A stretch of DNA of 64,000 nt from Nannocystis sp. RBIL2 (GCF_026626745.1 NZ_JAPNJW010000001.1:588311-652310); one strand, 5' to 3'; numbered from the stretch's first letter, positions 17,684 to 31,055 are shown. The notes: a model not told the origin generated them from the sequence alone. A program made the numbers and translations.

Positions 17684-17867
17684 CGTCCGAGGTCTCCGTC
17701 CGCTTGCAATGTATGCCGCGAACGCCTCGTCCGCGGCCCGCTCTGCGCACGCGGGCCGGGTGGTCTCGCGCGCATCTGCCTGCGCGAAGCGCCGGGCGTC
17801 GGCGGCGCCGGCTCTGCGCTGCGAGGCGGCTCCCCGGCCTGCGATCCGTTCGCGTACCATCCCCCCC

Positions 17868-19535
17868 ATGAAACTGTTTGTATGGGGGAGCAGGGGTGCA
17901 TTTGCGACGGTGCTCGTCGCGGCGGGGTGCGGAGACAGCGGCGTCGCGGTCACCACCGACACGGCCACGACCGACACGGCCACGCAGGCGACGACCAGCG
18001 GCGACAGCAGCAGTGAGCCGGCCCCGACCACCGGCGTACCGACCACCGGCGACAGCACGCTCGGCACCGGCGACGCCACTGATTCGACCACCACCACCAC
18101 CGGCGACACCACCACGACCTCGACCACCACCACCTCGGTCGACACCACCGACGCCACCACCACCTCGGTCGACACCACTGATTCGACCAGCACCGGCCCC
18201 GCCCCGTTCTGCGGCGACGGCGACGTCGACGACGGCGAGGCCTGCGACGACGGTCCGGCCAACGCCGACGACGGCAACTGCACCCTCGCCTGCGCCGAGG
18301 CCGTGTGCGGCGACGGCCTCGTCCACGCCGGAGTCGAGGCCTGCGACGACGCCAACGACGACGACGACGACGCCTGCAGCAACACCTGCGCCCTCGCCAC
18401 CTGCGGCGACGGAGCGGTCCAGAACGGCGAGGCCTGCGACGACGGCAACGCCGACGACACCGACGCCTGCCTCTCCACCTGTCTCGCCGCCAGCTGCGGC
18501 GACGGCCACGTCCAGGCCGGCGTCGAGCAGTGCGACGACGGCAACGCCGACGACACCGACGCCTGCCTCTCCACCTGCCAGGCCGCCAGCTGCGGCGACG
18601 GCCACGTGCAGGACGGCGTCGAGGCATGCGACGACGGCAACCCCGACGACGGCGACGCCTGCCTCTCCACCTGCCAGGCCGCCATCTGCGGCGACGGCCA
18701 CGTGCAGGCCGGCGTCGAGCAATGCGACGACGCCGACGCCGACGACAGCGACGCCTGCCTCGCCGATTGCAAGGCCGCCACCTGCGGCGACGGCGTCATC
18801 CACGTCGGCGTCGAGCAGTGCGACGACGGCAACGACATCGACGGCGACGGCTGCACCAGCGCCTGCACCGTCCCGACGACCTGCGAGGACCTGCAAGCGG
18901 CCGTGCCGATGCTGCCGAGCGGCGTCTACGTCGTCGACCCCGACGGCGTCGGTGTCCAGGCCGGCTACCCCGTCTTCTGCGACATGGTCACCGCCGGCGG
19001 CGGCTGGACCTTGCTCGAGCGCAGCCCGCTCGGCGCCCAGACCATCGGCAAGGCGCTCTACAACGACCTCCCCATCAACCCCGCCGACCCCGCCAACGCC
19101 CGCCATCGCCTGTCCAAGGCGCAGATGACCGTCCTGCGCGACCTCTCGGCAGACATGCGCATCGACTGCCGCGGCGACGACTATCTGCTGACCGCTGCCG
19201 GCAACCTGTTCAATGGTCAAGGCGGACCGAACAGCTGCTTCAATTGGTCGCAGGTGCTCTACAAGGAGGCCCGCCTCAAGGGCAACTTCGTGCAGAACAA
19301 GACCATCTGCACCTGGCACGTCGGCACCTCCGAGGGCTGCGCCGGCGCCTGGCACATCGACGAGGTGGCCCAGAACCAGTACGGCTGCGGCCTCGTCAAC
19401 TACCCGTGGAAGGGCGCCGCGGTCGTCAGCCCCTCCGCCGACACCTTCGCCACCGACCCCAACACCCTCGACGCGGTAGGCCCGATCCACGACTGTCACA
19501 AGCCCGGCGCCGCCCGCTGGCTGATGGTCCGCTGA
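17868..19535 (+). CDS. lipoprotein with 7 Myxococcus cysteine-rich repeats and a C-terminal fibrinogen-related-like domain
   Basis: Lipobox LVAAGCGD. Seven tandem CGDGxVxxGxEACDDGNxDDxDACxxxC repeats are present. The C-terminal domain contains [21 protein letters not shown], resembling the fibrinogen-related domain (FReD) CDM-TDGGGWTV motif. Confidence 0.75.
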
Positions 19536-20538: not shown

Positions 20539-21936
20539 ATGTCGATCGCAGGAAAGCCGGGAAATGATCAGCAGACCAGCCTCTCGACGGCTGCAGCGCG
20601 CCAGCTCGCCACGACGACGAAGTCCCCGCCGCAGATGCAGGGAATCTCGTCCCGCTGGCTGCTCAAATTGTTGCCCTGGGTGCACGTCAACGGCGTCTTC
20701 CGCCTCAATCGTCGCCTGAGCTACGCCGTCGGCGACGGCCGCGTCACCTTCTACAACACCGGCGCCAAGATCCAGGTCGTGCCGCTGGAGCTGACCGAGC
20801 TGCCGCTGTTCCGCGGCTACGAGGACCTCGAGGTGCTCAATGTGCTCGCCGGCCGCTTCGTGCAGAAGGAGTTCAAGGCGGGCGACGTGCTGACGCAGAA
20901 GGGCAACGAGGCCAACGAGATGGTCCTCATCGCCCATGGCAAGGTCAACAAGATCGGCACCGGCAAGTACGGCGACGAGAGCGTCCTGGAGACCCTGGCC
21001 GACGGTGATCATTACTCGTACCAGGCGATCCTCGAGTCGCAGGACTACTGGGATTTCACCGCCAAGGCAGTGACCGCCGGCAGCGTCCTGACGCTGTCGC
21101 AGGCGTCCTTCGAGGAGCTGGTCGCCCAGCACCCGTCGCTGCGCAAGCACGTCGACGAGTTCAAGGCGCGCTCGCAGAAGAAGCAGGACAACAGCGGCCA
21201 GGCCGCGATCGAGGTCGCCTCCGGCCACTCGGGCGAGCCCGTGCTGCCCGGCACCTTCGTCGACTACGAGACCTCCCCGCGGGAGTTCGAGCTCAGCGTC
21301 GCCCAGACCGTCCTGCAGGTCCACACGCGCGTGGCCGACCTGTTCAACGACCCGATGAATCAGACGCAGGAGCAGCTGCGCCTGACCGTCGAGGCGCTGA
21401 AGGAGCGCCAGGAGCACGAGCTCATCAACAACCACGAGTTCGGCCTGCTGCACAACGCCGACCTCAAGCAGCGGATTCACACCCGCAGCGGCCCGCCGAC
21501 GCCGGACGACATGGACAACCTGCTGGCGCTGGTGTGGAAGGAGCCGGCCTTCTTCCTCGCCCACCCGCGGACCATCGCGGCGTTCGGCCACGAGTGCAAC
21601 CGCGCGGGCATCTACCCGACGCCGATCGACCTGGGCGGCCATCACGTCCCGTCGTGGCGCGGCGTGCCGATCTTCCCCTGCAACAAGATCCCGATCTCCG
21701 ACACGCGCACCACCTCGATCCTGCTGATGCGCGTCGGCGAGAAGAACCAGGGCGTCATCGGCCTGCACCACAAGGGCATCCCCGACGAGATCGAGCCGAG
21801 CCTGTCGGTGCGCTTCATGGGCATCAACGAGAAGGCGGTCATCTCGTACCTGGTCAGCCTCTACTACTCGGCCGCCGTCCAGATCCCGGACGCGCTCGGC
21901 ATCCTCGAGAGCGTCGAGATCGGCCGCGCCGACTGA
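20539..21936 (+). CDS. family 2B encapsulin shell protein with inserted cNMP-binding domain (Cnb-like), paralog 1
   Basis: An AAGGA RBS lies 7 bp upstream. A CAP-like cNMP-binding domain is present ([46 protein letters not shown]). It is about 60% identical to the next gene. The gene sits immediately upstream of a GPP-methyltransferase / terpene-cyclase pair, as in cnb-mibS-gppmt operons. Confidence 0.7.
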
Positions 21937-22017: not shown

Positions 22018-23421
22018 ATGTCGATTTTCGAGAAGTCCGGCCGTGATGGCGACGGACAGCAGCCGATGAGCCTCGGGACCCGAGCCGCGCGGCAGCTGGC
22101 GACGACCACCAAGACCCCGCCGCAGAACCAGGGGCGCACGCCTCGCTGGCTGTTGCGCTCGCTGCCCTGGGTCGACGTCACCGGTGGCACGTTCCGCGTC
22201 AATCGCCGCATGAACGTCGCGGTCGGGGACGGGCGGATCGAATTTACCAACATCGGCGCCAAGGCTCAGGTGATCCCGGCCGAGCTCACCGAGCTGCCGC
22301 TCCTGCGCGGATTCGCCGACGACGAGGTGCTCTCGCACCTCGCCAGCCGGTTCGTGCAGTCCGAGTTCAAGCCGGGCCAGCTCATCGCCGAGCGCGGCAA
22401 GCCGGCCGACCACGTGTACCTGCTGGTCCACGGCAAGGCCAACAAGCTCGGCGAGGGCCCCTACGGCGACGAGATCATGCTCGAGGTGATCGCCGACGGC
22501 GCGCACTTCGGCGATCACGCGCTCGTGCAGGACGACGACGCCTGGGACTACAGCGTCAAGGCGGTCACGCCGTGCATCGTCCTCGCGCTGCCGCAGACCG
22601 TGTTCGAGGAGCTGATCGGCCGCTCGGCCGCCCTGCGCGCGCACGTCGAGCGCTACAAGGAGCTGCTGAAGACCCCGCAGGACAAGCACGGCCAGGCGGC
22701 CATCCGCTTGACCGCGGGCCACCACGGCGAGGTCACCCTGCCGGGCACCTTCGTCGATTACGAGGCCTCGCCGCGCGAGTACGAATTGAGCCTCGCGCAG
22801 ACCATCCTGCAGCTCCATTCGCGGGTGTCGGATCTGTTCAACGATCCGATGGACCAGCTCGAGGAGCAGCTGCGCCTGACCATCGACGCCCTGCGCGAGC
22901 GGCAGGAGCACGAGCTCGTCAACAACCGCGACTTCGGCCTCCTTCACAACGCCGACTACAAGCAGCGGATCAACACCCGCAGCGGCCCGCCGACGCCCGA
23001 CGACATGGACGAGCTGCTGTGCCGGCGCCGCAAGACCCGGTTCTTCCTGGCCCACCCGCGGACGATCGCCGCCTTCCGCCGCGAGTGCACCCGCCGCCGG
23101 CTCGATCCGCCGAACGTCGAATACGAGGGGTCCATCGTCGCCGGCTGGCGCGGCGTGCCGATCCTGCCGTGCGACAAGATTCCGATCTCCGAGACGCAGA
23201 CCAGCTCGATCCTCGCCATGCGCGTCGGCCAGGACGCGCAGGGCGTCATCGGCCTGTATCGCAGCGGCCTCCCCGACGAGCGCGAACCCGGCCTGTCCGT
23301 CCGCAGGATGGGCACCAACGAGAAGGCCGTCGCCTCGTACCTCGTCAGCACGTATTACTCCGCAGCGGTCCTGATCCCGGACGCGCTCGGGATCCTGGAA
23401 AACATCGAGATCGGGCGCTGA
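22018..23421 (+). CDS. family 2B encapsulin shell protein with inserted cNMP-binding domain, paralog 2
   Basis: Collinear homology with 20539-21936 ([34 protein letters not shown]). Contains a cNMP-binding domain. Confidence 0.7.
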
Positions 23422-23475
23422 GCGCCCCCGCCGAGCGAGGCGCCACCTTGGGGCGCCTCGTCACAGTGCAACGAA

Positions 23476-24332
23476 AGAGAACCAACGATCACGAACACGC
23501 CCACCACGGCCAATAGCGTCCTGCGCAGCGAATACCAGAAGTCGGTCGCCAACTACTGGAACACCAACCAGAACGACCCCGTCAATCTTCTGCTCGGCCA
23601 CGTCGACGGCTACTACCACCACCACTACGGAATCGGCGCCGTCAATTGGTCGGTGCTGGAGCAGCCCGAGGCCACGCGCGACGACGCCATCATCCGCGAG
23701 CTGCACCGCCTCGAGCACGCGCAGGCGGAGCATCTGCTCAAGAAGCTCGGCCCGATCAAGCCCGAGAGCCGCCTGCTCGACGCCGGCTCCGGCCGCGGCG
23801 GCACCAGCCTCATGGCCCACGAGCGCTTCAAGTGCCAGGTCGACGGCGTGTCGATCTCGGAGTACCAGGTCGGCTTCGCCAACGAGCAGGCCGCCAAGCG
23901 CGGGTACACCGACAAGCTGAAGTACCACTTCCGCAACATGCTCGACACCGGCTTCGAGACCGGCTCGATAGACGCCATCTGGACCAACGAGACCACGATG
24001 TACGTCGACCTGTACAAGCTGTACGGCGAGTTCTCGCGGCTGCTGAAGGACGGCGGGCGCTACGTCTGCATCACCGGCTGCTACAACGACATCACCGGCG
24101 CGACGCCCAGTACATCTGCAACATCCACCCGCGCAGCGAGTACTTCGAGGCGATGGCGGCCAACAACCTCGTCCCGATCGAGGTCACCGACCTGACCCCC
24201 GACACGATCCCGTACTGGGAGCTCCGGACCCGCTGCTCGGTCGCCACCGGCGTCGAGGATCCGTTCCTGCGGGCCTACAAGGAGGGCAGCTTCCACTACC
24301 TCCTCATCGTCGCGGACCGCATCGTCCGCTGA
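23476..24332 (+). pseudogene. geranyl diphosphate 2-C-methyltransferase (SAM-dependent), apparently frameshifted and lacking a canonical start
   Basis: SAM motif I is LLDAGSGRGGTS, and GHVDGYYHHHYGIGAV...ELHRLEHAQAE is conserved. The reading frame switches near 24100-24116 between CYNDITGA and QYICNIHPRSEYFEAMAANNLVPIEVTDLTPDTIPYWELR, across ORFs 23653-24195 and 23646-24332. There is no ATG/GTG/TTG between the upstream stop at 23421 and the conserved N-terminal region. Confidence 0.55.
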
Positions 24333-24425
24333 CCATGACGGCGCCGGCCGGGGGTATGATCATACCTGCCGGCCGCTGCGATTTTCGCCGCCGCTCCTCG
24401 GCGGCCGCTGCAACAGAGGCGAGCG

Positions 24426-25573
24426 ATGACTGAGGCCAAGCGCACGACGGACCCGAACGATGTATCCGCCCTCCTCGCCGGACCGACCGGCCTGGGGACG
24501 CACGCCGCTCGCCTCGCGCAGCTGCTGAATCGGGCCGCGCCGGCGTTCTCGACCCGCCGCAGCCGGCCCTCGATCCCGCGTACGCCTGGCGGCGCTGGGG
24601 CGACGGCAGCGGGTCGTCGCTGTACTGCCCGATCACCGAGCGCATCAACGAGCCGCTGGCCGACGAGGTCGACGAGCGGCTCGCGGTCTGGGCCAAGGAC
24701 TGCGGCTTCGACGACGACGAGATCGTCAAGATCCGCAAGACCCGGTTCGGGCGGCTGGTGATGCTCACCCACGCCGATTGCGACGATCCGGACCGGCTGC
24801 TCATCGGCGCCAAGATGAACGCCGCGTGGTGGGCCGCCGACGACTACTACGCCGACGACAGCGCGCTCGGGGCGGTGCCGGAGCAGCTGCCGCCGCGCCT
24901 CGTCCTGGCGATGGCCGCCATGGATCCGCTGCCGCGCGCCGGCGAGTTCAGCGTCCCGCTCGAGCAAGCGATCGAGGCCGAGCGCGTGCTCGTCGCCCTG
25001 CGCTCGGGCCTCGAGCACATGGGCCGCTACGCCACGCACGAGCAGGTCCAGCGCACCTGCTACTCGACCTTCGCCATGTTCGTGTCGTGGAGCGCCTACG
25101 CGGCGTGGCGCCACACCGGCGAGTACCCGCCTGCCTGGAACTACCTGGCCGCGCGCCAGCACGACAGCTTTTACACCTCGATGACGCTGTGCGACGTCAT
25201 CGGCGGCTACCGCCTGCCCCCCGAGCTCTTCTACGACGCGCGGATCCGCCGCGCCGCGTTCCTGGCCGGCACGACGGTCGTCCTCGTCAACGACCTCTAC
25301 TCGGTGGCCAAGGACCTCGAGGACGCGAAGCCGCCGTGCAACATGGTCCTGCAGGTCGCGGCCGATCGCGGCTGCTCGATCGACGAGGCGACCGAGGTCA
25401 CCGTCCAGCTCCACAACGACCTCGTCCGCGACTTCGAGGCCAGCCACCGCGAGCTGCAGGCCGTCCCCAGCGTCGAGCTGCAGCGGTTCCTGCGCGCCCT
25501 GCGGGCGTGGATGGGCGGCGCGTTCGAGTGGCACGACAGCAACCCGCGCTACAAGACCGGCCGCAAGCCGTAG
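24426..25573 (+). CDS. class I terpene cyclase, 2-methylisoborneol-synthase-like (N-terminal region shows an apparent frameshift near 24540)
   Basis: Metal-binding motifs are DDYYADD and the NSE triad NDLYSVAKDLED. The conserved upstream helices (LYCPITERINEPLADEVDERLAVWAKDCG...FGRLVMLTHADCDD) are in frame with the body. They lack an in-frame start before the ATG at 24758. The only upstream ATG (24426) is in another frame. Confidence 0.6.
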
Positions 25574-25736
25574 GCCCTGCGCGCGTGCGCTGAATCGCCG
25601 CGCCGCGCGAGTGAGGAACAAGGGCGCCCCGCCCGCGCGCGCTCGGCATTCACGCCGCGCGGTCGATCACTACATTCACGGCTGGGCTCGCTGGCGGCGC
25701 TGCTTGCATGTGCAGCCATCTCGGCCATCTTCAGGC

Positions 25737-28700
25737 GTGACCGGCGATCCGCTCGCGTTCCTCCACCCGGCCGCCCGGGCGTGGTTCGAGGCCTGCTTTG
25801 ACGCGCCGACTTCCGCGCAGGTAGCAGGCTGGCCGGCGATCGAGGCCGGCGAATCGACGCTGCTGCTGGCGCCCACCGGCTCGGGCAAGACGCTGGCGGC
25901 GTTCCTCGGCGCGATCAACCGCGTCATGTTCGCGCCGGTGCCGCCGTCGGCGGAGCGCTGCCGCGTGGTCTACGTCTCGCCGATCAAGGCGCTCGGGGTC
26001 GACGTCGAGCAGAACCTGCGCTCGCCGCTGGCCGGCATCGCCGCGACCGCGGACCGGCTCGGCATGACCGTCCACACGCCGACTGTGGCGATCCGCAGCG
26101 GCGACACCCCGCAAAAGGCGCGTGCGCACATGCAGCGCCACCCGCCCGACATTCTCATCACCACGCCCGAATCGCTGTACATGCTGCTCACCAGCGAATC
26201 GCGGGCGATGCTGCGATCGGTCGACACCGTGATCGTCGACGAGATCCACAGCCTCGTCGCCAGCAAGCGCGGCAGCCACCTCGCCCTCTCGCTCGAGCGC
26301 CTCGAGTGGCTCCGCGCCGGCGCGGAGCCGCTGCAGCGGATCGGCCTGTCCGCGACCCAGCGCCCGCTCACCGAAGTGGCGCGCTTCCTCGGCGGCTCGG
26401 TCGTCGACGGCGACGCGATCGCGCCGCGGCCAGTGACGATCGTCGACGCCGGCCAGGTCAAGCAGCTCGACCTGCGGATCGAGATGCCCGTCGAGGAGCC
26501 CGGCGCGAGCATCGAGGACGTCCCGCCGGCCGCGAACGAGGGGCCGACCGCGATCTCGGGGCTCCCGCGCTCCAACCTCACCGCCCTGCACCCGCGCCTC
26601 GTCGAGCTGATCCGCGCCCACCGCTCGACCATGCTGTTCGTCAACAGCCGCCGCCTCGCCGAGCGGCTCGCTGCGGCGCTCAACGAGGTCGCGGGCGAGC
26701 CGCTGGCGCTCGCGCACCACGGCTCGATGGCCAAGGACGTGCGCGCCGGGGTCGAGGAGCAGCTCAAGCGCGGCACCTTGCCGGCGATCGTCGCCACCTC
26801 CTCGCTCGAGCTCGGCATCGACATGGGCGCGGTCGACCTCGTGATCCAGCTGGCCTCGCCGCCGTCGATCGCCGCCGGCATGCAGCGCGTCGGCCGGGCC
26901 AACCACCACGTCGGCGGGCGCTCGCGCGGCGTCATCATCCCCAAGTTCCGCGGCGACCTGCTGCCGTGCGCCGCGGCGGCGCGGGCGATGCTCGCCGGCG
27001 AGGTCGAGTCGTCGCGTTACCCTCGCAACCCGCTCGACATCCTCGCCCAGCAGGTCGTCGCCGCGGTGGCGATGGACGACTGGGCCGCCGAGGCGCTGTA
27101 CGACAAGCTGCGCGCCGCCGCCCCGTACGCCGAGCTGCCGCGCGACGCCTTCGAGGGCGTGCTCGACATGCTCAGCGGCCGCTACCCGAGCGAGGACTTC
27201 GCCGACCTGCGCCCGCGCGTCAACTACGACCGCGTCACCGGTCAGCTGTCGGCGCGCCACGGCGCCCGCCGGGTGGCGATCGGCAACGCCGGCAGCATCC
27301 CCGACCGCGGCCTGTTCGGCGTGTTCCTCGCCGGCAGCGGCGAGGGCGGCCGCCGCGTCGGCGAGCTCGACGAGGAGATGGTGTTCGAGTCGCGGATCGG
27401 CGACGTATTCGTGCTCGGCGCCTCGTCGTGGCGCATCGAAGAGATCACCCACGACCGCGTGCTCGTCTCGCCAGCCCCGGGCGAGCCCGGCAAGCTGCCG
27501 TTCTGGCGCGGCGACGGCCCCGGGCGCCCGCTCGAGTTCGGCCAGGCGATCGGCGCCCTGATCCGCGAGCTCGGAGCGCTGTCCGACGCCGACGCCGAGG
27601 CCCGCCTCGTCCAGCAGCACTGCCTCGATCCGGCCGCGGCCCGCAGCCTCCTGCAGTACGTGCGCGAGGAGCAGGAAGCAGCCAAGACCTTGCCGACCGA
27701 TCGCACGATCGTCGTCGAGCGCTTCCGCGACGAGATCGGCGACTGGCGCGTCTGCATCCTCTCGCCGTTCGGCGCCGCCGTGCACGCCCCGTGGGCGATG
27801 GCGGTGCGCAGCGCCCTGCTCGAGCGCTACGCCGCCGAGCTCGACGTCGTCTGGTCCGACGACGGCATCGTGTTCCGCCTGCCCGAGGCCGAGCGCGCGC
27901 CCGACCCGACGCAATTCTTCCCGCGCGCCGACGAGCTCGAGGACCGCGTGGTCGCGCGCCTCGCCGAGACCTCGCTGTTCGCCACCCGCTTCCGCGAGAA
28001 CGCCGGACGGGCGCTGCTGCTGGTCAAGCGCCGACCCGGCCAGCGCACCCCGCTGTGGGCGATGCGGCGCAAGTCGGCCGACCTGCTGGCCGCCGCCTCG
28101 CGCTTCCGCGACTTCCCGGTCGTGCTCGAGACCTACCGCGAGTGCCTGAAGGACGTGTTCGACCTGCCCGGCTGCGTCGACCTGCTGCGCCGCGTCGAGC
28201 AGCGCGCGATCAAGGTCGTCGACGTCGAGACGCGCAGCCCGAGCCCGTTCGCCGCGGCCCTGCTGTTCAACTACGTCGGCAACTTCATGTACGAGGGCGA
28301 CGCCCCGCTGGCCGAGCGGCGCGCCCAGGCCCTGACGATCGACCACGCGCGTCTCAAGGCGCTGCTCGGCGAGGCCGCCCTGCGCGACCTGCTCGACGCC
28401 GACGCGATCGCCGAGCTCGAGGCGACCCTGCAGCGGCGCGCTCGCAAGCTCAACCACCCCGACGAGATCCACGACCTGCTGCTCGCGCTCGGCGATCAAG
28501 AGCGCGACGACCTCGTCGCCCGCGCCGGCGTCGCCGAGGACGAGATCGATCGCTGGCTGGCCGAGCTCACGCACACCCGCCGGATCGTCAGGGTCAAGCT
28601 CGGCGGTCGCTGGCGCTACATCGCCGCCGAGGACGCCGGCCGCTACCGCGACGCGCTCGGCGTCGTCTCGCCGCCGGGCCTGCCGGCAGTGTTCCTCGAG

Positions 28701-30212
28701 TCGGTCGAAGATCCGCTGGCCGACCTCGTCGCCCGCCACGCCCGCACTCACGGCCCGTTCCGCGCCGAGTGGCTGGCCCAGCGCTTCGCTGTCGGCACCG
28801 CCCTGGTCATCGGCGCGCTGCGTCGCCTCGCCGCCCGCGGCAAGGTCGTCGAGGGCGAGTTCATCCCCCGCGGCGCGGGCCTCGAGTGGTGCGACGACGA
28901 GGTCCTGCGCCGGCTCAAGCGCATGTCGCTGGCGCGCCTGCGCGAGGAGGTCGAGCCGGTCGAGCAGGCGGTGCTCGGCCGCTTCTCGCTCGCGTGGCAG
29001 GGCATCGGCGGCGAGCGCGAGGGCCCCGAGGCGGTGCTGCAGGCGATCGAGCAATTGCAAGGAGTCGCGATCCCGGCCTCGGTGCTCGAGGGCGAGGTCT
29101 TGCCGGCGCGGGTCGCCAACTATCGTGCCACCGATCTCGACGTTTTGTGCGGCGCCGGCGACGTCGTCTGGCGCGGCGTCCGGCCGCTCGGCCAGGCCGA
29201 CGGCTACGTCGCGCTCTACCTCGCCGACGACGCCGCCTGGCTCACGCCCGACCCCACCCCGGCCGCCGGCGAGCTCGCCGCGCGCGTGCGCGAGGCCCTG
29301 CAGGCCCGCGGCGCCTCGTTCTTCGCCGAGCTCGTCACCCAGGTGCACGCCCCGACCGACGAACTACTCGAGGCGCTGTGGGACCTCGTGTGGGCCGGCG
29401 AGGTCACCAACGACACCCTCACCTGTCTGCGCAGTCGCCTCGCCGGCGGCGATCGGGGCCCGCGCCCGCAGCTGCGCTTCGGCGTCGACGGCCGCGGCCG
29501 ACGCAGCGGCCCGCCGGGCAGCGAAGGTCGCTGGTCGCTCGTCACTCCGCGCCCCGTCGACGAGACCGAGCGCCGGGCCGCCCGCGCCCGCCAGCTGCTC
29601 GCGCGCCACGGCGTGCTCACCCGCGAGGCGGTCGCCGCCGAGGATCACGACGGCGGCTTCGCGGCCGTCTATCCTGTCCTCAAGGCCATGGAGGAGGCCG
29701 GCCGGGTGCGCCGCGGCTACTTCGTCGCCGGCCTCGGCGCGACCCAGTTCGCCCTGCCCGGCGCCGAGGATCGCCTGCGCGACGTCCGGGACATCGACGA
29801 GGACGCGCCCTTCACCGTCCTGCTCGCCGCCACCGATCCAGCCAACCCGTACGGCGCCGCGCTGCCGTGGCCGGATGTCCCCGAGGCCAGGTTCGAACGA
29901 GCCGCCGGCGCCCGCGTGGTCCTGCGCGACGGCCGGCTCATCGCCTTCCTCAGCCGCGGCGCCCGCTCGCTCGTCACCAACCTCCCCGACGCCGAGCCGG
30001 AGCGCGGGCGCGCCACCACGGCCCTCGCCGAGGCCCTCGCGCTGCTGCCCGAGGTCACCGGCCAGCGCTACGTCCTGCTCGAGCAGATCGACAATCAACC
30101 GGCCCCCGCCTGGCCACAGGTCGCAGCATTCACCGCCGCCGGCTTCCGCCCCACCCACGACGGCCTGATCCTGCGCCGCGACGAGCCGCGCCTCGGCGCG
30201 AGGAGGCGCTGA
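25737..30212 (+). CDS. lhr: ATP-dependent helicase Lhr (large helicase-related, DEAD/DEAH box)
   Basis: Walker A (APTGSGKT), DEIH box (VIVDEIHSL) and helicase C motifs. Total length about 1490 aa with the long Lhr C-terminal extension. Confidence 0.85.
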   Translation: MTGDPLAFLHPAARAWFEACFDAPTSAQVAGWPAIEAGESTLLLAPTGSGKTLAAFLGAINRVMFAPVPPSAERCRVVYVSPIKALGVDVEQNLRSPLAGIAATADRLGMTVHTPTVAIRSGDTPQKARAHMQRHPPDILITTPESLYMLLTSESRAMLRSVDTVIVDEIHSLVASKRGSHLALSLERLEWLRAGAEPLQRIGLSATQRPLTEVARFLGGSVVDGDAIAPRPVTIVDAGQVKQLDLRIEMPVEEPGASIEDVPPAANEGPTAISGLPRSNLTALHPRLVELIRAHRSTMLFVNSRRLAERLAAALNEVAGEPLALAHHGSMAKDVRAGVEEQLKRGTLPAIVATSSLELGIDMGAVDLVIQLASPPSIAAGMQRVGRANHHVGGRSRGVIIPKFRGDLLPCAAAARAMLAGEVESSRYPRNPLDILAQQVVAAVAMDDWAAEALYDKLRAAAPYAELPRDAFEGVLDMLSGRYPSEDFADLRPRVNYDRVTGQLSARHGARRVAIGNAGSIPDRGLFGVFLAGSGEGGRRVGELDEEMVFESRIGDVFVLGASSWRIEEITHDRVLVSPAPGEPGKLPFWRGDGPGRPLEFGQAIGALIRELGALSDADAEARLVQQHCLDPAAARSLLQYVREEQEAAKTLPTDRTIVVERFRDEIGDWRVCILSPFGAAVHAPWAMAVRSALLERYAAELDVVWSDDGIVFRLPEAERAPDPTQFFPRADELEDRVVARLAETSLFATRFRENAGRALLLVKRRPGQRTPLWAMRRKSADLLAAASRFRDFPVVLETYRECLKDVFDLPGCVDLLRRVEQRAIKVVDVETRSPSPFAAALLFNYVGNFMYEGDAPLAERRAQALTIDHARLKALLGEAALRDLLDADAIAELEATLQRRARKLNHPDEIHDLLLALGDQERDDLVARAGVAEDEIDRWLAELTHTRRIVRVKLGGRWRYIAAEDAGRYRDALGVVSPPGLPAVFLESVEDPLADLVARHARTHGPFRAEWLAQRFAVGTALVIGALRRLAARGKVVEGEFIPRGAGLEWCDDEVLRRLKRMSLARLREEVEPVEQAVLGRFSLAWQGIGGEREGPEAVLQAIEQLQGVAIPASVLEGEVLPARVANYRATDLDVLCGAGDVVWRGVRPLGQADGYVALYLADDAAWLTPDPTPAAGELAARVREALQARGASFFAELVTQVHAPTDELLEALWDLVWAGEVTNDTLTCLRSRLAGGDRGPRPQLRFGVDGRGRRSGPPGSEGRWSLVTPRPVDETERRAARARQLLARHGVLTREAVAAEDHDGGFAAVYPVLKAMEEAGRVRRGYFVAGLGATQFALPGAEDRLRDVRDIDEDAPFTVLLAATDPANPYGAALPWPDVPEARFERAAGARVVLRDGRLIAFLSRGARSLVTNLPDAEPERGRATTALAEALALLPEVTGQRYVLLEQIDNQPAPAWPQVAAFTAAGFRPTHDGLILRRDEPRLGARRR

Positions 30213-30215
30213 TCC

Positions 30216-31055
30216 ATGCCCGAGGGCGACACCCTCCACAAAGTCGCCGCCCGCCTGCAGGTGATGGTCGGCCAGGCCGTCACCCGCTTCGAATCGGTGA
30301 TCCCGGAGCTCGCCCTCGTCGGCCGCACGATCACCGCAGTCGAGGCCCGCGGCAAGAACCTCCTGATCTGGTTCGACGGCACCCACGCGCTCTACACCCA
30401 TTTACGCATGGAGGGCAGCTGGCACCTGTATCAGCCGCACAGCCCGTGGCGTAAACCCGCCACGGCCGCGCGCGCGGTGATCGCCACCGAATCGTGGCTC
30501 GCGGTCTGCTTCTACGCCCCCACCGTCGAGTGGCTGAGCGCCTGGGAGATCGAGCATCACCCCGTCCTCTCCGCCCTCGGCCCCGACCTGCTCGGCCCCG
30601 ACGAATCGGACCAGCCCCTCGCCGAGGCCCTGCAACGCCTGCGCGCCGACCCGCGGCGCCCGCTCGGCGAGGCCATCCTCGATCAGCGAATCGTCGCCGG
30701 ACTCGGCAACGTCTACAAGAGCGAGCTACTCTTCATGGAGCGGCTCGACCCGTTCAAGCCGGTCGGCGACTACGACGATGCGACGCTCCTGCGATTGCTC
30801 GCGGCCGGCCGCAAGTGGCTGCGCCGCAACCTCGTCGGCGCAGGCCCGCGCAAGACCCGGTGGGACGTCGGCCGCGCCAACACCTGGGTCTACAACCGCT
30901 CGGGCGAGCTGTGCCCGCGCTGCAACACCCCGATCGCCATGCGCCGCCAGGGCACCCTCGGCCGCACCACTTATTATTGCCCGCGCTGCCAGCAAGCGGG
31001 CGCCGGCGCCGAGCCCCCGCGCGGCCGCGTCCTCGTGCGCGGCCCGGCCCGCTGA
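30216..31055 (+). CDS. nei: Fpg/Nei family DNA glycosylase (endonuclease VIII-like)
   Basis: N-terminal MPEGDTLH catalytic motif, H2TH region, C-terminal zinc finger (CPRC...CPRC). A GAGGAGG RBS is present. The start is 4 bp after the lhr stop. Confidence 0.85.
   Translation: MPEGDTLHKVAARLQVMVGQAVTRFESVIPELALVGRTITAVEARGKNLLIWFDGTHALYTHLRMEGSWHLYQPHSPWRKPATAARAVIATESWLAVCFYAPTVEWLSAWEIEHHPVLSALGPDLLGPDESDQPLAEALQRLRADPRRPLGEAILDQRIVAGLGNVYKSELLFMERLDPFKPVGDYDDATLLRLLAAGRKWLRRNLVGAGPRKTRWDVGRANTWVYNRSGELCPRCNTPIAMRRQGTLGRTTYYCPRCQQAGAGAEPPRGRVLVRGPAR

Follow-up and report, generated by a model that had tools for sequence, protein, structure and literature searches.

An encapsulin-associated 2-methylisoborneol operon with intact shell genes and probable pseudogenes for both biosynthetic enzymes in Nannocystis sp. 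RBIL2

A 64,000-nt stretch of the genome of Nannocystis sp. RBIL2, hereafter referred to as the window, contains four co-directional genes that encode, in order, two shell proteins, a geranyl diphosphate (GPP) 2-C-methyltransferase, GPPMT, and a 2-methylisoborneol (2-MIB) synthase, MIBS. All the genes of this operon are on the + strand; they were identified by six-frame translation, listing of open reading frames (ORFs) and sequence searches against Pfam, NCBIfam and the PDB, and coordinates are counted from the start of the window. Here, we report that the locus is probably a Family 2B encapsulin 2-MIB operon in which both biosynthetic genes have recently turned into pseudogenes and the two shell genes are intact. 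It represents a known type of operon in a decayed state, and not a new kind of system. In the ancestral pathway, as known from the literature on these families, GPPMT methylates GPP, the cyclase turns 2-methyl-GPP into 2-MIB, and the cyclase enters the shell via an N-terminal cargo-loading domain. In Streptomyces griseus, the shell protein formerly called EshA encapsulates 2-MIB synthase through such a domain, which is disordered (PMC11550324).

Results

The window is close to N. pusilla, and RBIL2 has been described as a subspecies of N. pusilla; its genome assembly was produced by HGAP from PacBio Sequel data (PMC10435759). A scan of a genome collection gave three loci for comparison, from N. 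pusilla Na p29, N. punicea FL3 and N. bainbridge BB15-2, with nucleotide identities to the window over the operon of 95.5%, 89.6% and 88.9%, respectively. An initial annotation, made from the sequence alone, had suggested such a comparison with orthologous loci in related genomes. It revealed single, continuous and intact ORFs for both enzymes in all three species, in which the ATG of GPPMT, a 25-nt segment of the same gene and a CCC run in MIBS are all present. The three corresponding lesions are unique to the lineage of the window, both against the DNA of these relatives and against 6-7 orthologous proteins, and they are derived relative to the intact orthologues. The coordinates of the genes and lesions are given in Table 1.

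Table 1 Features of the 2-MIB operon in the window of Nannocystis sp. RBIL2.
Feature	Coordinates	Strand	Basis or remark
Family 2B encapsulin shell gene 1, 465 aa, intact	20539..21936	+	Pfam, NCBIfam, identical database protein
Family 2B encapsulin shell gene 2, 467 aa, intact	22018..23421	+	Pfam, NCBIfam, identical database protein
GPPMT, almost certainly a pseudogene	23491..24332	+	N-terminal part in frame 1 to 24099; C-terminal part in frame 0 from 24102
Lost GPPMT start codon, ACG (ATG in all relatives)	23491..23493	+	DNA alignment with the three relatives
Junction of the 25-nt deletion in GPPMT, ancestral GCCGCTCGCGCGCCGTCAGCGAGAT	24100..24101	+	Four-way DNA alignment
Frame-1 stop of GPPMT	24193-24195	+	End of frame-1 reading past the deletion
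MIBS, frameshift after codon 37	24426..25573	+	Frame 0 at 24426-24536, frame 2 from 24536; Pfam Terpene_syn_C_2
ATC start in the public MIBS annotation, 369-aa MCY1063594.1	24464..24466	+	Product begins MRPPRRTDRPG, the frame-2 translation
Cargo-loading motif GPTGLGT, frame 0, 5' of the frameshift	24480..24500	+	Motif scan
C run lacking one base (ancestral CCC)	24535..24536	+	Four-way alignment, gap pattern '-XXX', window only

The GPPMT gene is read in two frames. The frame of 23653-24195 aligns to residues 26-229 of the PDB GPPMT chain 3vc1_A, and that of 23646-24332 to residues 244-312 of the same chain; the PDB GPPMT entries 3vc1 and 4f84 both match the window in this divided manner. The conserved N- and C-terminal parts are therefore in different frames, as the initial annotation had stated. 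It had also estimated that about 26 nt are missing near 24100-24116. The deletion is there, but its size is exactly 25 nt, with the junction at 24100|24101: the segment GCCGCTCGCGCGCCGTCAGCGAGAT (25 nt) is present in the three relatives and forms a gap in the window only (pattern '-XXX'). This deletion puts the C-terminal ~75 residues of GPPMT out of frame.

The start of the gene is altered as well. All orthologous GPPMT proteins begin with MN[T/M]P at the codon that matches 23491-23493. In agreement with an earlier remark that no canonical start lies between the upstream stop and the first conserved residues, there is no in-frame ATG, GTG or TTG between the stop at 23419-23421 and position 23653, where GTG is the next canonical in-frame start. 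The canonical start is missing because the ancestral ATG became ACG at 23491-23493. The conceptually repaired protein scores 458 bits against the NCBIfam GPPMT model, which has a cut-off of 400, and the annotated 187-aa fragment scores 262 bits. What stands next to the shell genes is a GPPMT homologue with a lost start and a frameshifting 25-nt deletion, in the place of a functional GPPMT.

These lesions were mapped onto the GPPMT of S. coelicolor (ScGPPMT), in which the diphosphate of GPP is held by R34, H49, Y51 and R260, and the prenyl groove comprises W29, H49, Y51, E173, M176, Y177, I218, F222, C224, I226, F273, Y277, F282 and Y284 (PMC9800250). The numbering of the PDB GPPMT chain includes a 20-residue tag, for which the mapping was adjusted. 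The deletion removes the codons equivalent to ScGPPMT ~211-218, the I218 equivalent among them, and from residue ~219 on the equivalents of F222, C224, I226, R260, F273, Y277, F282 and Y284 are out of frame. Judged from this residue mapping, any available downstream start would also drop the equivalents of W29, R34, H49 and Y51. GPPMT is thus predicted to be dead on two independent counts.

In MIBS, which belongs to the family named 'family 2 encapsulin nanocompartment cargo protein terpene cyclase' at NCBI, the ancestral GGGCCCG has become GGGCCG at 24532-24537. The orthologous MIBS proteins are single ORFs of 377-384 aa. In the window, the ancestral ATG at 24426 now gives a 111-aa product of which 37 residues are native, and the 1-nt deletion leaves the catalytic domain in another frame than the GPTGLGT motif and the only ATG. 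GPxGLGT / GPxGxGTxxL is the only conserved element of the cargo-loading domain (PMC11550324). The frame-2 ORF is open from 24434, and its first canonical start is GTG 24758; a start at this codon would cut 43 residues whose aligned counterparts are residues 119-161, in the ordered part of the 2-MIB synthase 3v1v_A. The frame-2 catalytic domain thus appears to have no canonical start that keeps the fold. The initial annotation had already placed the only upstream ATG (24426) in frame 0 and the catalytic body in frame 2, with no in-frame start before 24758, and translation confirmed each of these statements. The repaired MIBS scores 459 bits with the NCBIfam model f2_encap_cargo2 (positions 2-366/366). 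The annotated 369-aa product lacks positions 1-19 of this profile, which are the site of the loading motif. Only after conceptual repair are the loading motif and the cyclase found in one polypeptide.

Both deletions have window-specific substitutions close to them. There is an A-to-C change at 24108, 8 nt 3' of the 25-nt deletion, and an AC-to-TT change at 24546-24547, 10 nt 3' of the 1-nt deletion, which replaces an invariant Asp by Val. Such substitutions a few bases 3' of both deletions could reflect error-prone repair events. No microhomology was found at the 25-nt junction. The spacer between GPPMT and MIBS, which is highly variable among the relatives, contains a 13-bp GC-rich stem-loop at 24345-24375 that is centred on the palindrome TGATCA and followed by GAUUUUCG. 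The stability of this stem-loop is no greater than that of shuffled sequence (z = -1.4), and a terminator scan made no call in the spacer.

The damage to GPPMT is shared by ILAH1, an isolate that was sequenced and assembled separately from RBIL2 in the same study (PMC10435759). The GenBank and RefSeq GPPMT products of ILAH1 have the identical out-of-frame tail (ITGATPSTSATSTRAAS... / …ITGATPSTSATSTRAASTSRRWRPTTSSRSRSPT), and the choices of downstream starts and the 59-aa C-terminal fragment are the same as in RBIL2, with one residue different (V to L). The second shell protein of ILAH1 differs from that of RBIL2 at 1/467 residues, and over the shell proteins and the GPPMT fragment the two strains differ at 2/1119 residues. 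ILAH1 differs by residues and yet has the same GPPMT tail; it is therefore a distinct genome with an inherited deletion, and not a repeated assembly error. A protein search with the 111-aa frame-0 cyclase product gave no match, and the two deletion junctions had none when metagenome contigs were scanned for them.

To place the two deletions among other length differences, ~17 kb were aligned, in which indels could be polarised by two or three outgroups. Within coding sequence, these ~17 kb have just two window-specific indels, the 25-nt deletion of GPPMT and the 1-nt deletion of MIBS. The assembly of Na p29 has five small coding indels of its own, against none further in the window. These are deletions of 1-2 nt at the window-equivalents 20678 (shell 1, GGG to GG), 28441, 29059, 31529 and 32115, which fall in the first shell gene, in the gene of the Lhr helicase and in that of the hydrolase downstream; in RefSeq, a shell protein of Na p29 is accordingly listed in truncated form, with 419 aa (WP_276603213.1). 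They look like homopolymer basecalling errors (Nanopore R9.4.1) and not like biology. A generally indel-prone RBIL2 assembly was considered and rejected, as the many 1-nt differences that separate it from Na p29 are peculiar to the Nanopore assembly of the latter.

The two shell genes show no such damage. Both proteins have a cyclic nucleotide monophosphate (cNMP)-binding domain (PF00027) and a SrpI-like domain (PF19307), and by Pfam and NCBIfam each is a shell with a SrpI-like HK97 domain and an inserted cNMP-binding domain. They match the NCBIfam model encap_f2b over its full length, positions 1-450/450, with 751 bits for shell 1 and 746 bits for shell 2 (cut-off 400 bits). By exact-sequence match, shell 1 is identical to MCY1063590.1 and MCY0994502.1, and shell 2 is identical to MCY1063591.1 of RBIL2. 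The gene lengths are the same as in the orthologues, and the early view that the shell genes are intact holds. The true start of shell 1 is 20539 (465 aa) and not ATG 20419 of the longest ORF (505 aa), because the segment 20419-20538 has indels among the relatives that are not multiples of three and all of them share the 20539 start.

The substitution pattern was compared between these groups of genes. On the window branch, the cargo genes have a nonsynonymous to synonymous (N:S) ratio of 15:9, with an omega of ~0.52. The four intact neighbours, which are the two shell genes, Lhr and Fpg, have an N:S of 18:50 (Fisher p = 0.003 against the cargo genes) and an omega of ~0.13, a low value which extends over the whole window branch and cannot be attributed to the period that followed the loss of the cargo. 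For the shell genes by themselves, N:S is 5:13 (p = 0.03 against the cargo genes), and for shell 2 it is 4:8. Window-unique replacements at invariant positions are found in GPPMT (F to Y in DLFKLY and K to E in YFKAMA), and at otherwise invariant positions of MIBS they include D to V, P to S, A to V, K to N and A to P.

The public annotation gives both damaged genes an ATC start. PGAP places it at 23632 for GPPMT (187-aa MCY1063592.1) and at 24464 for MIBS (369-aa MCY1063594.1), and the GPPMT fragment has been re-annotated in RefSeq from CTG, with 201 aa.

The genes upstream of the operon are unrelated to terpenoids. One of them, at 17709-19535, encodes a DUF4215-repeat protein with offset self-similar BLAST matches and register shifts of ~96 nt between 18210 and 18854; this gene has many small indels relative to the relatives, which suggests a variable tandem-repeat region. 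Downstream, at 25611-31055, a large Lhr-type helicase of 1533 aa, which has the complete set of four Lhr winged-helix domains, is directly followed by a Fpg/Nei DNA glycosylase, and each of the three other Nannocystis species has these two genes in synteny 3' of its 2-MIB operon.

Discussion

The sequence data are best described by a model in which the operon has decayed at its two biosynthetic genes. GPPMT has lost its ATG, which is now ACG, together with 25 nt, so that the C-terminal ~75 residues are out of frame. The cyclase would have lost one base after codon 37, and this would disconnect its catalytic domain from the loading motif and from the only ATG. Ordinary recent gene decay, and not recoding, would thus have left the shell genes intact beside dead cargo genes. 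Of the explanations put forward by the initial annotation, decay into pseudogenes is the one that gains support, from the derived lesions against intact orthologues, the GPPMT product of ILAH1 and the excess of replacements. GPPMT is almost certainly a pseudogene, and MIBS is probably one too. The strain is predicted to be incapable of 2-MIB production from this locus. In the genome paper, 2-MIB clusters are recorded for FL3 and NCELM and not for RBIL2 or ILAH1, which is only weakly consistent with loss (PMC10435759).

Local sequencing errors had been put forward as another explanation. That both disruptions are artefacts of sequencing or assembly and the whole pathway is intact could be argued from the high GC content of the operon stretch, about 68-71%, and from the long-read assembly. 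Yet a deletion of 25 nt and a T-to-C change in a start codon are not error types of PacBio consensus, the surrounding genes are clean, without scattered window-specific coding indels, and the same frameshifted GPPMT product occurs in the separately assembled ILAH1. The GPPMT part of this explanation is in practice already refuted, and the explanation as a whole is highly improbable. A sequencing error thus stays a possibility for the cyclase only, whose lesion is the one that fits PacBio errors. Here GPPMT would be dead, and the shift in the cyclase would be a homopolymer miscall, CCC read as CC, in a gene that really encodes an intact 382-aa cargo cyclase. The lesion is indeed a 1-nt deletion in a run of three bases, at a position known from the RBIL2 assembly alone, which was made by HGAP from PacBio Sequel long reads. 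This is countered by the lack of any other window-specific 1-nt coding indel in ~17 kb, by six window-unique replacements at positions that are invariant in six relatives, and by a partner enzyme, GPPMT, that is already inactivated. Furthermore, the cyclase of ILAH1 is missing from the protein databases, though an intact 382-aa protein would cluster with those of the relatives at 90%; its absence is indirect evidence that fits a pseudogene call in ILAH1 too. We consider a miscall of the cyclase unlikely.

Recoding could in principle restore full-length enzymes, by programmed -1 ribosomal frameshifting or by other means. The shift required is -1 in both genes, and there are open frame overlaps at 24102-24195 in GPPMT and at 24434-24761 in MIBS. 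But no slippery heptamer of the form X XXY YYZ occurs in any register in 24060-24195 or 24434-24761, and in three species and at least 6 proteins the orthologues consist of one uninterrupted ORF each, which marks the layout in two frames as new and not conserved. Even with a shift, GPPMT would be without a start codon and without 8-9 conserved residues. Programmed frameshifting, which the initial annotation had listed as a third option, was therefore rejected, and recoding of any kind is extremely unlikely. A different proposal is that the body of the cyclase is made from a non-canonical start, such as ATC 24464, as a free enzyme outside the shell that lacks the loading domain and acts on GPP or another substrate. 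PGAP does annotate a 369-aa product from this ATC, in the frame-2 ORF that is open from 24434. ATC is a very poor initiation codon, and no Shine-Dalgarno-like sequence precedes ATC 24464. Moreover, the substrate 2-methyl-GPP cannot come from a dead GPPMT, and the window-unique replacements affect invariant positions of the cyclase. In favour of a free enzyme, one report describes the proline-rich domain at the N-terminus of 2-MIB synthases as lowering activity and not as being required (PMC10520479). Such a product is very unlikely on balance.

Several points weigh against reading the locus as a decayed operon. This reading is drawn from the assembled sequence, and the MIBS lesion, a 1-nt deletion in a homopolymer of three bases, is of the one error type that PacBio consensus can make. 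For the ILAH1 cyclase, no protein was found in the database collection. The N:S of the cargo genes on the Na p29 branch is 9:10, from which the excess on the window branch does not differ significantly (p = 0.37); because of this, relaxed selection on the cargo genes is suggestive only. According to PMC10520479, 2-MIB synthases are not inactivated in vitro when their N-terminal domain is taken away, so that a cyclase translated from a non-canonical start could, by analogy, be active. Finally, the scope here is the 64-kb window, and a second intact copy may exist elsewhere in the ~12 Mb genome.

If the operon has decayed as proposed, the shell genes, still intact and constrained, suggest either that the loss is recent or that some use has been retained. 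RBIL2 and ILAH1 are nearly identical at the locus, and for this reason the inactivation may be recent, perhaps too recent for decay of the shells. It had been proposed at the outset that intact shells would imply a different role for the compartment. No such role is required, as the near-identity of the two strains allows for a recent loss. That selection has kept the shell genes after the loss of the cargo pathway of the operon, for a use independent of this cargo, is doubtful. If it were so, the shell may load a cyclase with a loading domain that is encoded elsewhere, or act via its externally displayed cNMP- and metal-binding domains, and RBIL2 and ILAH1 would be natural 'cargo-less shell' strains. 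We looked for an alternative cargo within the window and rejected it: the only plausible GPxGxGT motif is that of MIBS, and the neighbours (Lhr, Fpg/Nei, a hydrolase and others) are unrelated.

The public records hide the damage. They name the cyclase as an intact 369-aa 'cargo protein', which lacks the loading motif, and present GPPMT as two short proteins unrelated to each other; counts of encapsulin cargo that are drawn from these records will be wrong. RBIL2 and ILAH1 are predicted to be 2-MIB-negative from this locus, and Na p29, FL3 and BB15-2 carry intact genes. 2-MIB is a musty odorant, and this prediction is relevant to the tracking of off-flavour sources and to genome mining. Close strains with and without a functional cargo pathway and with identical shells also form a natural experiment on what a Family 2B shell does without cargo. 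The practical consequences are modest, and the current understanding of encapsulins is unchanged.

The operons of Na p29, FL3 and BB15-2 are among the closest known systems. Their gene order and flanks are as in the window, with identities of 89-95.5%, and the lengths of their enzymes, 288 aa for GPPMT and 377-384 aa for MIBS, equal those of the window once repaired. The EshA / Sg Enc 2-MIB system of S. griseus (Andreas and Giessen, Nat Commun 2024, PMC11550324) shares the SrpI-like HK97 fold with a cNMP-binding insertion, a 2-MIB synthase cargo with a disordered N-terminal GPxGLGT domain, and a GPPMT in the same cluster. Compared with it, the RBIL2 locus is myxobacterial and has two tandem shell genes and a short loading domain of ~65 residues; in addition, both RBIL2 enzymes are disrupted, which leaves a shell without a locally encoded functional cargo. 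The cyanobacterial 2-MIB clusters (cnbA-mtf-mtc-cnbB) share the pair of GPPMT and MIBS flanked by proteins with cNMP-binding domains, in a gene order that, by their published description, differs from that of the RBIL2 operon (PMC12159092). The cyanobacterial GPPMTs are 74-76% identical to that of the window. Two-component Family 2B shells (PMC11071501; geosmin preprint 10.64898/2026.07.21.739788) likewise have a paralogous pair of shell genes beside a terpenoid cargo gene; in RBIL2, the cargo has been inactivated.

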